DNA from: an uncultured Chloroflexia bacterium
GTDB lineage: Bacteria; Chloroflexota; Limnocylindria; Limnocylindrales; CSP1-4
Direction of reading: 5' to 3'
DNA length: 64,000 nt
Assembly (NCBI GenBank): GCA_963766735.1
Contig: CAVYBU010000002.1
Span: 96,001-160,000, forward strand
The notes beneath the pieces were generated by a model that was not told where the DNA came from, did not search any database, and worked only from the letters and a program-made list of their open reading frames with translations. A program made the position numbers and the translations under genes. This document shows, piece after piece, positions 58,463 through 63,905 of this stretch. Every line of letters begins with the position of its first letter. The first letter of the stretch is position 1.

Positions 58463-58537
58463 GGGCCGGTAGCTCAACGGTAGAGCAAGTGACTCTTAAT
58501 CACTAGGTTCAGGGTTCGAATCCCTGCCGGCTCACCA
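58463..58537 (+). tRNA. tRNA-Lys (anticodon CTT)
   Basis: GGGCCGG/CCGGCTC-ACCA acceptor, AGTGA-CTCTTAA-TCACT arm, GTTCGAATC. Confidence 0.96.
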
Positions 58538-58852: not shown

Positions 58853-60064
58853 ATGGGCGAGGACGGTCTGTACGCCGCACTGGTGCGGCGCGGGATGTCC
58901 CGCCGGTCGTTCCTCCAGTTCTCGACGGCGATGGCTGCCGCCCTTGCGCTCCCGGCCACCTACGCGCCGCGAATCACCGCGGCCCTCACCGTCGCGCCGC
59001 GCCTGCCCGTCATCTGGATCCGCGGCCAGGGCTGCGGTGGCAACACGGAGGCCTTCATGCGGGCCGCCGACCCGTCCGTGGCCACGCTGCTGCTCGAGAC
59101 GCTGTCGATGGAGTACCACGAGGCGTTCCTGGCCTCCGCGGGCGACTCGAGGGACCTGATCCTCGCCGACGCCATGGACCGCTACCCGAACGGGTACCTC
59201 GCGGTTGTCGAGGGTGCCGTGCCCACCGGCGCCGGCGGTGCCTACTGCCTGGTGGGCGGACGCCCCGTGGGAGACGTCGTGCGCGAGGTCAGCGACGGCG
59301 CCCTGGCCACGCTGGCCGTCGGCTCCTGTGCGTTTGATGGCGGCGCCGCGGGGGCCAGCGGGGGCCAGACCGGGGCCGAAGGCATCCGGTCGCTGGTCGG
59401 CAACGGGCAGCTGATCACCTTGCCGGGTTGCCCCCTCAACGTGGAGAACCTCGTCGCGACGATCGTCCACTACCTCACGTTCGGCGAGCTGCCGCCGGCG
59501 GATCCGATGGGCCGGCCCCTCTTCGCCTACGGGCCCCTCGTTCACAACAAGTGCGAGCGCCGGCCGTTCTTCGAGTTCGGCGAGTTCGCGCTCGCGTGGG
59601 GCGACGAGGGGGCCCAGAAGGGCTGGTGCCTGTACAAGCTCGGCTGCAAGGGCCCAGAGACGATGGCCAACTGCCCGACCGTCAAGTACGGCGACGGGGT
59701 CAGCTGGAACGTCCGGGCCGGCCACGGCTGCGTAGGCTGCACGATGCCGGACTTCTGGGATGCGATGGGACCCGCCTACGACCGGCTCCCGCCGGTGATC
59801 CCGTTCCTGCCCAACATCACGGCCGACCAGATCGGTGTGGCCATGGTCGCGGGTGTCGGGGCGGTTGCCGCGGCGCACGCGGTGGGCATGGGCGTCCGCT
59901 ACAAGCGTCGCGCGGTCCTCGAGAGCCGGGCGGCCGCCGCCCAGGCGGCCGAGGGAGCCGGCGAAGCTCGTGCCGATGACGCCGGAGCCGCCGGTGCCGG
60001 AGACATGGCCAACGCCGGCGTCGAAGACACGGCCAGCGGCGGCGCAGACCCGGAGGCGCGCTGA
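58853..60064 (+). CDS. [NiFe]-hydrogenase small subunit (Tat signal, C-terminal TM), atypical proximal cluster
   Basis: SRRSFL Tat motif; CGGN, GSCA, PGCP; HNKC, CLYKLGCKGP, GHGCVGC. Confidence 0.92.
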   Translation: MGEDGLYAALVRRGMSRRSFLQFSTAMAAALALPATYAPRITAALTVAPRLPVIWIRGQGCGGNTEAFMRAADPSVATLLLETLSMEYHEAFLASAGDSRDLILADAMDRYPNGYLAVVEGAVPTGAGGAYCLVGGRPVGDVVREVSDGALATLAVGSCAFDGGAAGASGGQTGAEGIRSLVGNGQLITLPGCPLNVENLVATIVHYLTFGELPPADPMGRPLFAYGPLVHNKCERRPFFEFGEFALAWGDEGAQKGWCLYKLGCKGPETMANCPTVKYGDGVSWNVRAGHGCVGCTMPDFWDAMGPAYDRLPPVIPFLPNITADQIGVAMVAGVGAVAAAHAVGMGVRYKRRAVLESRAAAAQAAEGAGEARADDAGAAGAGDMANAGVEDTASGGADPEAR

Positions 60065-60065
60065 C

Positions 60066-61841
60066 ATGGCCCGCGTCGTGATCGATCCCGTCACGCGGGC
60101 CAGCGGCCATCTGCGCATCGAGGCGGACGTCTCGGGCGGCGCGGTGGCCGAGGCGTGGACCTCCGCCACGATGTTCCGGGACCTGGAGACGGTCCTGCGC
60201 GGACGTGACGCCCGCGACGCCTGGCTTCTCGCGGAGCGCATCTGCGGAACGTGCACCAGCGTCCACGCGCTTGCGTCCGTGCGCGCTGTGGAGAACGCCC
60301 TCGGCATCGACATCCCCACCAACGCCCGCCTGATCAGGAACATCCTGGCGTCGACCCAGCTGGTCCGGGACCACGTGCTCGGGTTCTACGTGACCCAGGG
60401 CCCGGACTGGGTCGATGCCAGGTCCGCGCTCAAGGCCGATCCGGTCGCCACTGCCCGCCTCGCGCGCGAGACCAGTTCGCGGCCGCAGTCCGGTCCCGAG
60501 CACCTCACGAGCGTCCGCGACAGGCTTGCCGCGGTCATCGACTCGGACCAGCCCGGCATGTTCGCGGGCGGCCCGTGGGGCCACCCGGCCTACCAGCTCA
60601 GCCCGGAGCAGAGCCTGCTTCTGCTGGCGCACATGCTCGAGGCGCTGGATTGGCAGCAGTCATTCATGCGGATCCACGCGCTGCTCGGCGGCAAGGATCC
60701 CCACCCGCAGACGTACGTCGTCGGCGGGATGGCGCTGGCGCCGCCCTGGGGCGGACCCAACCCGCCCCTGACCCGGGAGCACCCGATGGTCCCGGACCAC
60801 AAGGCGCCGGTCGCCCTGAGCGAGGCCGGGATCGCCATGATCGATGACCTGATCGCGAAGGGGCGGGCCTTCGTCGAGCAGGTGTTCGTGCCCGACGTGC
60901 GCCTCCTCACTGCGGCCTACCCGGAGTGGGGCGCGCTGGGCGCCAGTTCGGGCGACTACCTGTCCTGGGGTGACTATCCCCTAGGGGACGGCAAGGATCC
61001 AGCTCTGTTCCTTCCGCGCGGGCGTGTCTCGGGCGGCAACATCAACCTTGGGCTGGAGGCCGAACCGGACCGCGTGGCCGAGACCGTGACGCACGCCTGG
61101 TACACCTACACGGGCGGTGACGCGGCGCTCCTTCGACCGTCCGAGGGCGAGACCGTGCCCGCGTGGTCCGGGCCCCCTCTGCCTCTGGAGACCCTCGACG
61201 GCGCGGCCAAGTACTCGTGGGTCAAGGCCGCACGCTACGACGGCAAGCCCGTCGAGACGGGGCCCCTCGCCCGCACGCTCGTCGGGATCGCGAACGGCCA
61301 GTCGGAGATACGTGAGGGGCTGGCCATGCTGCTCGAGGAGACAGGCCTCGACGTCGAGGTCATGCCGAGCGTCCTGGGGCGGATGCTTGCCCGGGCGCTC
61401 GAGGCCCAGGTCCTGGCCCGCCAGGCAGCCACCTGTCTCTCGGAGCTCAAATCGAACCTCGCCACGGGCGACGTCGCGGTAGCGGACCTGTCGTTCTGGG
61501 AGCAGGGGTCCTGGCCCTCAGAGGCCGAGGGCCGCTCCATCGGCGAGGGGCCGAGGGGAGCCGTTGGCCACTGGGTGCGCATCCGTGACGGCCTGATCGA
61601 CGCCTACCAGGTGGTGGACGGGAGCACCTGGAACACCTCGCCGCGAGACGCGATGGGCGGCCGCGGCCCCATCGAGACCGCCCTTGTCGGCACGCCGGTC
61701 GCCGACCCGTCCCGCCCCCTGGAGATCCAGCGCGTCGTGCATTCGTTCGCGCCGTGCGCCGGCTGCGCCGCCCACCTGTTCGATCCGCGGGCGGTCGGCC
61801 CGCTCGAGATCCGCGTCCGCGCGGGGGAGAGGACCCGATGA
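60066..61841 (+). CDS. [NiFe]-hydrogenase large-subunit homolog with atypical active-site residues
   Basis: L1 RICGTCTSVH, PRG, L2 HSFAPCAGCAAH plus C-terminal extension. Confidence 0.9.
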   Translation: MARVVIDPVTRASGHLRIEADVSGGAVAEAWTSATMFRDLETVLRGRDARDAWLLAERICGTCTSVHALASVRAVENALGIDIPTNARLIRNILASTQLVRDHVLGFYVTQGPDWVDARSALKADPVATARLARETSSRPQSGPEHLTSVRDRLAAVIDSDQPGMFAGGPWGHPAYQLSPEQSLLLLAHMLEALDWQQSFMRIHALLGGKDPHPQTYVVGGMALAPPWGGPNPPLTREHPMVPDHKAPVALSEAGIAMIDDLIAKGRAFVEQVFVPDVRLLTAAYPEWGALGASSGDYLSWGDYPLGDGKDPALFLPRGRVSGGNINLGLEAEPDRVAETVTHAWYTYTGGDAALLRPSEGETVPAWSGPPLPLETLDGAAKYSWVKAARYDGKPVETGPLARTLVGIANGQSEIREGLAMLLEETGLDVEVMPSVLGRMLARALEAQVLARQAATCLSELKSNLATGDVAVADLSFWEQGSWPSEAEGRSIGEGPRGAVGHWVRIRDGLIDAYQVVDGSTWNTSPRDAMGGRGPIETALVGTPVADPSRPLEIQRVVHSFAPCAGCAAHLFDPRAVGPLEIRVRAGERTR

Positions 61842-62647
61842 CCGCCACCCCGAACACCCTGCGGGGGACGACGGCCCCCGTCGATGTCCCGGCCCCGGCC
61901 GACCCGGAGGCTGCGCCTGGCGCTCCGGCACAGGCGGCCCACGAGATCGACCGGCCGCACGAGCGCGTCCGCCTCTACATCTGGCAGGTGCCGGTGCGGG
62001 TGACGCACTGGGTGACCGCCGCCTGCATCGTCATCCTGAGCGTCACCGGGCTGTACATCGCGGACCCGTTCCTGGTCCCGCCCGGCGGATCGGTGATGTC
62101 GACGATCCGGCTGCTCCACATCCTGACCGCGCTCCTCTTCCTTGTCTCGGGGATCATCCGCACCTGGTGGCTGCTGGCCGGGAACCGGTTCTCCCGATGG
62201 TCCGCATTCATCCCTACCTCCAAGTTCCAGGCAACCGAGCTGTTCCGCCAGGCGGGCTTCTACGGGTTCGTCCGCAAGGAGATCCCCAAGGTGCTCGGCC
62301 ACAACCAGCTGGCCGCGACCGCGTACCTCGTGCTGTTCGCGCTGCTGCTCGTGGAGACGGTCACCGGCTTCGCTCTCGACGGGCTCATGGGCACCGAGCC
62401 TGGCGCCACGCTCTTCGGCTGGATGCGCGAGCTGTTCGGCCCGCAGATGCTGCGCCTCGTCCACCACCTCGCCATGTACGCGATCCTCGCAATCGCGCTG
62501 TTCCACATCTACAGCTGCATCCTGGTCGACCACATCGAGAGCAACGGGCTGATCTCCAGCATCGTGACGGGCTCCAAGTTCCCGACCCGCGAGGAGATCG
62601 TGGAGTCCCGCGACGGCGGCCCCGAGATGCTGGAGAGGGCGGAATGA
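61838..62647 (+). CDS. Ni/Fe-hydrogenase b-type cytochrome subunit
   Basis: VRVTHW, RLLH, GHN, RLVHH, FHIY haem-ligand histidines; 4 TM. Confidence 0.92.
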   Translation: MTATPNTLRGTTAPVDVPAPADPEAAPGAPAQAAHEIDRPHERVRLYIWQVPVRVTHWVTAACIVILSVTGLYIADPFLVPPGGSVMSTIRLLHILTALLFLVSGIIRTWWLLAGNRFSRWSAFIPTSKFQATELFRQAGFYGFVRKEIPKVLGHNQLAATAYLVLFALLLVETVTGFALDGLMGTEPGATLFGWMRELFGPQMLRLVHHLAMYAILAIALFHIYSCILVDHIESNGLISSIVTGSKFPTREEIVESRDGGPEMLERAE

Positions 62648-63186
62648 TCGCAACGGGCCCGGCCGTCGTTCTCGGGGTGGGCAACGTGCTGCTCCGCGAC
62701 GACGGCGTCGGTGTGCGCGTGGTCCAGGAGCTCGCCCGGCTGACGGCGGACGACCCGCGCGCGGTGCCCAGCGGCACGCACCTGGTGGATGGCGGGACTC
62801 TCGGCCTGGACCTCCTCCAGGCCGTGCGCGGCGCTCGCTCGCTGCTGCTCGTCGATGCGGTGAACCTGGGCCGGGCGCCCGGCACCGTCAGCGTCCTGCG
62901 TGGGCAGGCGATCACCGCGTCCTGCGTGGGCGGGGCGATCCCCGGCGGCGTGGGCGAGCTGCTGGGCATGGGTCGGCTGATGGGATGGCTGCCGGATCAC
63001 GTGACCCTCCTCGGCATCGAGGCGGGCGACACCGGGACGGGGGTCGGCCTCTCGGCCTGCGTTGAGGCGGCCGTCCCGACTGCCGTGGAGATGGCTCGCG
63101 TGGAGCTCCGCGCGCTCGACGAGCTCGCACCGGCTGGGAGGTCGGAGGCGCCGGCGGTCCGGCTGAAGGAAGGGGCGGCGGCATGA
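62644..63186 (+). CDS. Hydrogenase maturation protease homolog
   Basis: GVGNVLLRDDGVG, VDGGT, VDAV; conserved His absent. Confidence 0.87.
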   Translation: MIATGPAVVLGVGNVLLRDDGVGVRVVQELARLTADDPRAVPSGTHLVDGGTLGLDLLQAVRGARSLLLVDAVNLGRAPGTVSVLRGQAITASCVGGAIPGGVGELLGMGRLMGWLPDHVTLLGIEAGDTGTGVGLSACVEAAVPTAVEMARVELRALDELAPAGRSEAPAVRLKEGAAA

Positions 63187-63905
63187 GACGCAGGCTTGAC
63201 AGGACGCTGCGCCTGCTCATCGCGATGAACCTGATCGTGGTCGCCCTGCTCGCGTTGACCATGGTCGCGGGCTGGATGAAGGTCCTGCCGTCGGTCGGCG
63301 GCCCAACGCCGGCCACCTCCGACGCGCCGGCGGCCACCCCGGAACAGATGGAGATGGGCCTCGCCCATATCCCGACGTCCAGCAGCTGCCTGCTCTGCCA
63401 CGAGGCGGGTGGCGCCAGCGGGGTCAAGGTCATCCCGGCCATTGGCCACCCGCTGGAGGGCTGGGGGGCCTGCCTGACCTGCCACACGGACGACAAGCTC
63501 GGCCGCAACGCACCCGGTCACAAGGACATTGCCCAGACCGAGTGTGTCAACTGCCACAAGGTGGCCCAGGAGGGCCCGTCGATCACCCAGGCCCACGCAG
63601 ATCTGCACGAAGCGTGCTTTGACTGCCACGGCTCCGTGGCGCACCTCCCGTCCAGCATGGTTGGGCGCAACCAGGACGAGTGCTGGCTCTGCCACAAGCC
63701 GAACCCGGCCCCGCCGCCCACGAGACCGCATCCGGAGCCTGGGCAGCTGACATGCCGCGCCTGCCACCAGGCAGCAGACGCTGGCGCCTTGCCGATCGAT
63801 CATGCGCTGCGGGCGGACTCGAGCTGCCTGCTCTGCCACAACATCCGGGCGACGTCGGTCGAGAGCTCGTCCGAGGTCCCGTCCGCGAGCCCGTCCGGGG
63901 GCTGA
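63183..63905 (+). CDS. Membrane-anchored heptahaem cytochrome c
   Basis: N-terminal TM; seven CxxCH motifs (CLLCH, CLTCH, CVNCH, CFDCH, CWLCH, CRACH, CLLCH). Confidence 0.9.
   Translation: MRRRLDRTLRLLIAMNLIVVALLALTMVAGWMKVLPSVGGPTPATSDAPAATPEQMEMGLAHIPTSSSCLLCHEAGGASGVKVIPAIGHPLEGWGACLTCHTDDKLGRNAPGHKDIAQTECVNCHKVAQEGPSITQAHADLHEACFDCHGSVAHLPSSMVGRNQDECWLCHKPNPAPPPTRPHPEPGQLTCRACHQAADAGALPIDHALRADSSCLLCHNIRATSVESSSEVPSASPSGG

Follow-up and report, generated by a model that had tools for sequence, protein, structure and literature searches.

The stretch of DNA that we analyzed, 64,000 nucleotides from an uncultured Chloroflexia bacterium (the window), carries on its forward strand a five-gene operon for a membrane-bound [NiFe]-hydrogenase. 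The operon encodes a small subunit (P0001), a large subunit (P0002), a b-type cytochrome, a maturation endopeptidase, and a heptaheme c-type cytochrome (Table 1). Our subject is P0002, in which serine (Ser) stands at the position of the glutamate (Glu) that is regarded as the proton gate of these enzymes.

Table 1. Features of the hydrogenase operon in the window, with the residues of P0002 discussed in the text (Hyd-1 equivalents in E. coli HyaB numbering)
Feature	Position	Strand	Basis
Small subunit P0001, 403 aa	58853..60064	+	PF10518, PF01058, PF14720; TIGR00391; alignments to 1h2a_S and HyaA
[NiFe]-hydrogenase large subunit P0002, 591 aa	60066..61841	+	PF00374; best solved relative 3myr_B, E 2e-148
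Ser13 codon AGC at the proton-gate Glu position (Hyd-1 E28)	60102..60104	+	alignment with HyaB
L1 metal ligands Cys60-Gly-Thr62-Cys63; Thr62 for Hyd-1 V78	60243..60254	+	alignment with HyaB
Arg101-Asp102-His103 (Hyd-1 H117-D118-H119); first His replaced by Arg	60366..60374	+	alignment with HyaB
Clade-specific inserted loop, residues 225-243, APPWGGP...HP..P	60738..60794	+	alignment
Pendant Arg497 (Hyd-1 R509) in PRGAVGHW; Val500 for Leu of PRGALGHW (L512)	61554..61565	+	alignment with HyaB
Asp518-Gly519 for Hyd-1 Val530-Pro531	61617..61622	+	alignment with HyaB
L2 motif Ala562-Pro-Cys564-Ala-Gly-Cys567-Ala-Ala-His570; Ala562 for canopy Asp D574	61749..61775	+	alignment
C-terminal extension, 21 residues past His570	61776..61838	+	sequence; alignment with HyaB
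b-type cytochrome	61838..62647	+	PF01292; TIGR02125, 126 bits, above cutoff
HyaD/HybD-type maturation endopeptidase	62644..63186	+	PF01750; TIGR00072; ATGA overlap with cytochrome b gene
Membrane-anchored c-type cytochrome, seven CxxCH, N-terminal anchor	63183..63905	+	ATGA overlap with protease gene

The large subunit and its active-site residues

The frame of the large-subunit gene is open for 591 codons, from the ATG at 60066 to the stop at 61839-61841, and P0002 covers profile positions 1-508 of 508 of PF00374 with a score of 554.6 bits. Its best solved relatives by phmmer were the Allochromatium vinosum enzyme (3myr_B; expect value [E], 2e-148), Salmonella Hyd-5, and Escherichia coli Hyd-1. 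The AlphaFold2 (AF2) model of P0002 had a mean predicted local distance difference test score (pLDDT) of 88, and Foldseek aligned it to 3myr_B with template modeling (TM) scores of 0.89/0.94. P0002 scored below the NCBIfam equivalog cutoffs for Hyd-1 (448 versus 1101 bits), Hyd-2 (440 versus 969 bits), and NiFeSe enzymes (402 versus 600 bits). Because the proton-gate Glu is missing, we file P0002 as a variant, not an ordinary member, of the group-1 membrane-bound uptake type of PF00374.

Residues were mapped by phmmer alignments to solved structures and by a MAFFT alignment with E. coli HyaB, the source of the Hyd-1 numbering used here for alignment positions. At its N terminus, P0002 reads DPVTRASGHLRIE, in which GCC (60099-60101) encodes Ala12 and AGC (60102-60104) encodes Ser13, the residue aligned with E28. 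The L2 motif, HSFAPCAGCAAH, aligned to Hyd-1 HSFDPCLACSTH and gives D574A, the loss of the canopy aspartate (Asp). YQVVDGSTWN aligned to Hyd-1 YQCVVPTTWN, which gives V530D and P531G; we take the strand and loop that carry these two residues, Asp518 and Gly519, to line the Fe diatomic ligands. In the Desulfovibrio structures, the walls of the pocket that holds the Fe-bound CO probably include positions 512 and 530, and a cyanide is probably hydrogen-bonded by position 532. In the histidine-rich helix, RDHVLGFYVTQGPDW aligned to Hyd-1 HDHLVHFYQLAGMDW, with H117R and H122G (Arg101 and Gly106) and with D118 and H119 retained.

A preliminary description of the window, made before any alignment, had reported the missing proton-gate Glu and the missing Asp of the DPC motif, the codons GCC AGC at about 60099-60104, YQVVDGSTWN in place of the usual VP(S/T)T loop, and retention of the canopy arginine (Arg) of PRG, and it had related these to Hyd-1 E28, D574, R509, and the V-P-(S/T)-T loop. 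The structure and HyaB alignments bore out all of these assignments, with Ser13 at E28, Ala562 at D574, and Arg497 at R509. Its account of the histidine-rich helix stood as regards the departures at H117 and H122 but not as regards the full consensus that it quoted, since Hyd-1 itself reads FYQLAG there.

P0002 retains Cys60, Cys63, Cys564, Cys567, Arg497 (R509), Asp102, His103, His570, and Glu41, which we take to be the Mg-site Glu. The ligands of the metal site and the pendant Arg are intact, and so are the determinants of maturation and the partners in electron transfer. In the inserted loop, Trp228, Gly229/230, Pro231, His239, and Pro240 are nearly invariant among the close relatives described below; AF2 confidence fell below a pLDDT of 50 at residues 227-231 and 237-243 of this loop. 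It was likewise below 50 at residues 9-14 and 566-571 of P0002, and the model of a canonical paralog folded with the same alignment was comparably low at residues 10-14 and at the C terminus. Since the paralog's model is equally poor at the N-terminal motif, low pLDDT there carries no information on the missing Glu.

Comparison with E. coli HyaB (group 1d; solved, e.g., as 3uqy and, for E28Q, as 5lmm) showed a common fold (TM scores of 0.89/0.90), the same four cysteine (Cys) ligands, R509, D118 and H119, and a C-terminal histidine followed by a tail. The tail of HyaB is cleaved, and that of P0002 is presumably removed by the operon's own endopeptidase. P0002 differs from HyaB in lacking Glu28 and Asp574 and in having Asp-Gly for Val530-Pro531, Thr for Val78, and an inserted loop of 14-19 residues. 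The two operons share a small subunit exported by the twin-arginine translocation (Tat) pathway, a cytochrome b, and a HyaD-type protease, whereas the window's small subunit is without the two extra Cys of O2 tolerance and has asparagine (Asn) at C20, and its operon has an extra heptaheme gene. Among the Hyn-type enzymes of A. vinosum and Thiocapsa roseopersicina is the best solved match to P0002 by both sequence and fold (3myr, which we take to belong to group 1e), but these enzymes keep the Glu, the VVPST loop, and the DPC Asp, all of which P0002 lacks. The partner of Hyn-type enzymes is the Isp complex, whereas the third gene of the window's operon encodes a cytochrome b. Canonical group-1 enzymes for comparison come from two loci of the same Chloroflexota family (L047 and L048) and from a paralog in the window's own genome (L001). 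These share the operon core of small subunit, large subunit, cytochrome b, and protease, and the small subunit of L001 also has Asn at C20; unlike P0002, however, all three large subunits read RIEGH, QDHVIHFYHLHALDW, VVPSTWN, and DPC.

Group 2b H2-sensing hydrogenases are cytoplasmic, have neither a Tat signal nor a C-terminal extension of the large subunit, and are coupled to a histidine kinase. Assignment to this group was ruled out by the Tat signal, the membrane helix, the 21-residue extension, and the cytochrome partners of the window's enzyme.

A clade-wide signature, its range, and its history

A word-indexed protein search with P0002 returned 6456 matches at E <= 0.001. Clade counts refer to the best 120 of these 6456, the window's protein included; they are 56-100% identical to P0002 and were aligned with 39 other rows. 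Position 28 is Gly in 103 of the 120, Asn in 12, Asp in 3, Ser in 2, and Glu in none, versus Glu in 32 of the 39 other rows. Position 530 is Asp in 120/120, and position 531 is Gly in 65 and Ala in 55; Asp518 is the only ionizable novelty fixed across all 120 sequences. The signature is a trait of a lineage. At position 78, 91% of clade members have Thr, compared with Val in 84% of the outgroup; at position 512, 94% have Val for Leu; and the stretch preceding PRG contains a near-invariant Ser, Gly, and Gly specific to the clade. Arg occupies the H117 position in 113/120. D118 and H119 are retained throughout (120/120), as are C76, C79, C576, C579, and H582 in at least 119, the CN-binding Ser/Thr532 in 117, and R509 in 115 (4 Gly, 1 Lys).

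The canopy position is more variable. Position 574 is Ala in 66 sequences, Asn in 20, Asp in 17, Ser in 13, and another residue in 4; loss of D574 is secondary and not universal in the clade. Ser13 of the window recurs only in L007, the closest relative, and in P0119. Because the usual residue in the clade is Gly, Ser13 is a local variant, one base away from that Gly, and not derived directly from Glu. A basal sub-branch (P0107, P0109, P0113, and P0120) reads EAPGGALGHW, with Gly for the pendant Arg (R509; the equivalent of 61554-61556 in the window), and P0102 has Lys there (PKG). These members without the pendant Arg keep DPC and the histidine-rich helix.

FastTree, applied to 159 rows, recovered a Glu-less clade of 122 rows with a support of 100, Glu being present in none of them. 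A quick IQ-TREE analysis (LG+G4, 60 rows) recovered a Glu-less clade of 33 rows with a Shimodaira-Hasegawa-like approximate likelihood ratio test (SH-aLRT) value of 100, and its sister, also with a support of 100, comprised L047 and L048, canonical RIEGH/VVPSTWN/DPC enzymes of the window's own family. The trees are unrooted, and the order of events given here assumes a root outside the clade. Basal members (P0109, P0113, P0122, P0102, L045, and a branch with L041 and L043) have Gly28 and Asp530, and some of them also keep the histidine-rich helix. Because these basal members already have Gly28 and Asp530 yet keep DPC, we place both the disappearance of Glu28 and the arrival of Asp530 on the stem of the clade; Asp574 was lost later, only in part, and in the window's branch.

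In a library of representatives at 50% identity (150 sequences), the clade shrinks to roughly one full-length sequence (P0082) and P0122. With P0082 set aside, 149 representatives remain, and the N-terminal motif is recognizable in 86 of them, 74 with Glu and 12 without; 6 of the 12 read like the window's clade or its fragments. Outside the clade, P0203, P0205, P0213, P0243, P0193, P0256, and P0260 are also without Glu at the gate position. FastTree placed P0205, P0213, and P0243 among Glu-bearing group-1 rows; loss of the "universal" Glu has therefore occurred more than once. P0203, P0205, P0213, and P0243 have Gly or Asn at position 28 with the Cys ligands intact; DPC and Pro531 are retained, and position 530, which is Asp in the window's clade, is Thr or Ser. 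Thr or Ser occurs at position 530 in 3/3 independent Glu-less representatives versus 6/32 Glu-bearing rows. With so few independent events, we do not use this comparison as evidence on convergence at position 530.

The large-subunit gene is under purifying selection. The ratio of nonsynonymous to synonymous substitution rates (dN/dS) was 0.18 (dS, 0.17) against L007, whose protein is 94% identical, and about 0.20 against L008 and L012. Values of 0.46-0.49 against L010, L011, and L013 were set aside because, in this GC-rich gene, synonymous differences reach a plateau near 0.47-0.49. The canonical paralog, compared between the same two genomes as P0002 and L007, is 98% identical and gave a dN/dS of 0.088.

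To delimit the taxonomic range of the variant, as had been proposed at the outset, we sampled 401 genomes across the phylum. A match at E <= 1e-100 was present in 33, and the best 30 loci were inspected, leaving 14 weaker matches aside. These loci comprised 7 Glu-less and 22 canonical enzymes and 1 (L060) with an unreadable N terminus. All 7 Glu-less loci lie in the window's family, f1 (genomes G000, G306, G084, G354, G258, G250, and G226), and in the genomes searched the Glu-less subfamily thus appears confined to one family of Chloroflexota. The source names of the relatives are Chloroflexia, Chloroflexi, or Candidatus Limnocylindrales. A canonical group-1 enzyme is also present in 9 of the 12 Glu-less-type genomes examined (G000, G001, G004, G005, G306, G084, G354, G258, and G250); with the queries used, none was found in G002, G003, or G226, and completeness is not given for G002 and G003. 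Three Glu-less loci from the window's own genus (L041, L042, and L043, in G306, G084, and G354) are only 56-59% identical to P0002 and belong to other subtypes, which either keep DPC or read RAGGN/APC. Such divergent Glu-less genes in one genus suggest either an ancient paralogy followed by differential loss or gene transfer inside the family.

Proton exit and competing explanations

An artifact of sequencing or assembly, or a decaying pseudogene, would account for the substitutions; we regard this explanation as refuted. Contigs of other sequencing runs (X3 and X4, DNA; X19, an RNA library) provided an independent check. One X3 contig matches the window without a difference over 61311-62163, a span that includes the codons of Asp518 and Ala562, and a second differs once over 60030-60280, where three base changes would be required to turn the AGC of codon 13 into a Glu codon. 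The X4 contig (61431-61846) has 15 differences and the X19 contig (61508-61775) has 6, all of them listed; none alters Arg497, Val500, Asp518, or Ala562, the changes at 61554, 61565, and 61616 being synonymous. The preliminary description had considered base-calling error unlikely and had suggested examining whether other data restore the Glu and the Asp. The contigs keep the variant residues, and together with the signature shared by 120/120 nearest proteins from many sources, they exclude such an error. The comparative argument is the stronger of the two because the best DNA source may be the window's own sample. The 591 open codons and the dN/dS of 0.18 further oppose the explanation, and positive evidence for it is absent apart from a single relative from a metagenome-assembled genome (L015), with both subunits split over frames, and one low-depth contig with a 1-base gap at 61566.

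We favor, with a probability of about 0.6, the reading that the operon encodes a functional group-1 [NiFe] uptake hydrogenase, exported by Tat and bound to the membrane, that oxidizes H2 and whose proton exit has been re-routed. In its favor are the fold and the family match, the retained ligands and maturation determinants, the HypD of the genome, the shared signature and monophyly of the clade, purifying selection, and the conserved operon, to which the RNA-library contigs add a weak hint of expression. H2 would still be split at the Ni-Fe site. On the stem of the clade, the canonical proton exit from the terminal Cys to Glu28 would have been given up, Asp would have been gained at position 530, followed by Gly or Ala for Pro531, and the gene for the seven-heme cytochrome c would have joined the operon; the canopy Asp574 would have been lost later, in the window's sub-branch. 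Electrons would pass along three iron-sulfur (Fe-S) clusters to the cytochrome b, the heptaheme cytochrome, or both. For protons there are two candidate exits. One is Asp518, possibly aided by Thr62 and by water in the space freed by Gly/Ser13, and the other is a hydrogen-bond chain of Arg497, Asp102, His103, and Glu446, as in T. roseopersicina Hyn. PMC3325256 reports that Hyn E14Q retains about 50% of its in vitro activity, that an alternative route via Arg487, Asp103, His104, and Glu436 is backed by mutagenesis (Szori-Doroghazi et al.), and that changes at Arg487, Asp103, and His104 impaired activity. The equivalents of all four residues of this route are present in P0002. Hyd-1 with an altered Glu, moreover, retains some activity according to PMC10430524. 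The PGG and PKG members of the clade, however, mean that the Arg-Asp-His route cannot be a general solution for the clade. Because four members read PGG and one reads PKG, we lean toward Asp518 as the general proton route.

Several observations count against a working, re-routed enzyme. PMC10430524 describes E28 and R509 as a pair of outer-shell residues that "appear crucial for activity," PMC8020662 regards E28 as universal, and removal of the Glu from the Desulfovibrio fructosovorans enzyme abolishes activity, as cited in PMC3325256. The pendant Arg is itself lacking in P0107, P0109, P0113, and P0120 and replaced by Lys in P0102. The nonsynonymous rate of the large subunit is about three times that of the canonical paralog (dN, 0.030 versus 0.009; dN/dS, 0.18 versus 0.088), and the N-terminal motif is modeled with low confidence in both AF2 models, that of P0002 and that of the canonical paralog.

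Some of these points would also fit an enzyme that binds and perhaps splits H2 but, without the gate, turns over very slowly and serves as a low-flux, sensing, or redox-poising module. The loss of most or all activity in Glu-to-Gln variants of standard enzymes (as cited in PMC3325256 and PMC8020662), the large subunit's faster evolution compared with its canonical paralog, and the co-occurrence of a canonical group-1 enzyme in 9 of 12 Glu-less-type genomes could all be understood in this way. Yet the Tat signal, membrane anchor, cytochrome b, and heptaheme cytochrome are those of an electron-delivering build, the operon contains no kinase or regulator, the signature is strictly conserved down to 56% identity, and in three of the genomes, two of them without stated completeness, our queries found no canonical group-1 enzyme; we consider a slow module unlikely. 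More improbable still is that the rebuilt shell around the Fe ligands (Val530Asp, Pro531Gly/Ala, Leu512Val, Val78Thr, and the conserved inserted loop) alters the cofactor ligand set or the reaction, such that this would not be an ordinary H2/H+ enzyme. The clustering of the clade signature near the active site, the invariance of Asp530, the probable place of positions 512 and 530 at the pocket of the Fe-bound CO, and the rise of a new cytochrome partner on the same branch are in line with such a change, but all first-shell ligands and Ser/Thr532 (117/120) are retained, as is Arg509 in most members. The maturation protease and the small subunit encoded alongside are of ordinary kinds, and there is no positive sign of another substrate.

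A bolder form of the re-routing reading, which we put forward tentatively and consider rather doubtful, is that Asp530 acts as a new proton acceptor or gate, or alters the Fe ligand pocket, and that the subfamily would form a separate mechanistic class with its own wiring for proton-coupled electron transfer. Asp530 would lie next to the ligands of the Fe, its loop released by the change from Pro to Gly or Ala; it arose on the branch on which Glu28 was lost and the heptaheme cytochrome gained, and some members even do without the "strictly conserved" pendant arginine.

For two decades the route of protons in [NiFe]-hydrogenases has been under debate, argued largely from point mutants, and the mechanistic literature treats the Glu as universal; PMC8020662 terms E28 "a universal proton gate." Here a whole natural lineage is without it. 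In the literature searched, which was partial and included few subscription papers, no account of a natural group-1 lineage lacking this Glu came to light, nor any mention of a Glu-less branch of HydDB group 1f. The lineage, apparently a successful one of uncultured bacteria that abound in soil and sediment, has another acidic residue fixed close to the metal site. It thus offers a natural test of proton movement, namely, of whether the Glu is dispensable, of an alternative route, and of the relation of either to the added heptaheme cytochrome. It also calls for caution in genome surveys that count each PF00374 match as an ordinary H2-oxidizing enzyme.

The operon, its cytochromes, and the neighborhood

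The small subunit carries a Tat signal, provides the ligands of three Fe-S clusters, and has a membrane helix at its C terminus. At small-subunit positions 19 and 120, where the proximal cluster of O2-tolerant enzymes has its extra Cys, P0001 has Gly in both cases, and assignment to the O2-tolerant group 1d type was rejected, as the six-Cys proximal cluster of that type is missing. The extra Cys are also missing from the small subunits of relatives, Glu-less and canonical. At the second proximal-cluster Cys (Hyd-1 mature C20), P0001 has Asn (GCGGN). Asn is also found at this position in L001, L007-L013, and L019-L021 (Asp in L011 and L013), in Glu-less and canonical small subunits alike. Clusters with three Cys and one Asp are known from actinobacterial group 1h enzymes.

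A single base separates the small-subunit stop from the large-subunit ATG (60062-60068), and the remaining genes are joined by three ATGA start/stop overlaps (61838-61841, 62644-62647, and 63183-63186); the five genes appear to be packed for translational coupling. The cytochrome b gene likely starts at the ATG at 61838, which overlaps the large-subunit stop, although its longest open reading frame (ORF) begins at a GTG at 61754. The five-gene arrangement is found in the window and in 10 of 11 related loci (L007, L008, L010-L013, L015, and L072-L074), the exception being L009, and the heptaheme cytochrome gene follows every Glu-less operon examined except that of L009. Downstream of three canonical operons (the sister loci L070 and L071 and the window genome's paralog L075), no multi-heme gene was found in the first 3-4 kb or so. 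Gain of the heptaheme gene maps to the same branch as loss of the Glu, which is one event and not statistical evidence of coupling. At L009, the Glu-less large subunit is followed by no cytochrome b or protease match and only by a 44-residue cytochrome c match that overlaps the gene end; at L015, both subunits are split over reading frames. These oddities may be assembly faults or real decay.

The window's genome encodes four [NiFe] large subunits, and the other three all keep the Glu. One of them is the canonical group-1 paralog L001, on contig C3, which is accompanied by a separate Tat small subunit and cytochrome b; the remaining two are shorter and, from their motifs, look group-3-like. 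HypD occurs once in the genome, and no hyp genes were found adjoining the operon.

RNA-library contigs that are 92-99% identical to the operon cover 24 of its 30 bins and give a weak hint of expression; DNA carry-over is possible, and the uncovered parts are uninformative. A tRNA-Lys (CTT) gene lies at 58463-58537, 315 bases upstream of the operon. We rejected a genomic island at this tRNA, as no repeat of it of >=14 bases was found in the window and the 15 kb downstream. Downstream of the operon, ORFs judged by eye comprise a response regulator/kinase-like pair and carbamoyl-phosphate synthase-like genes.

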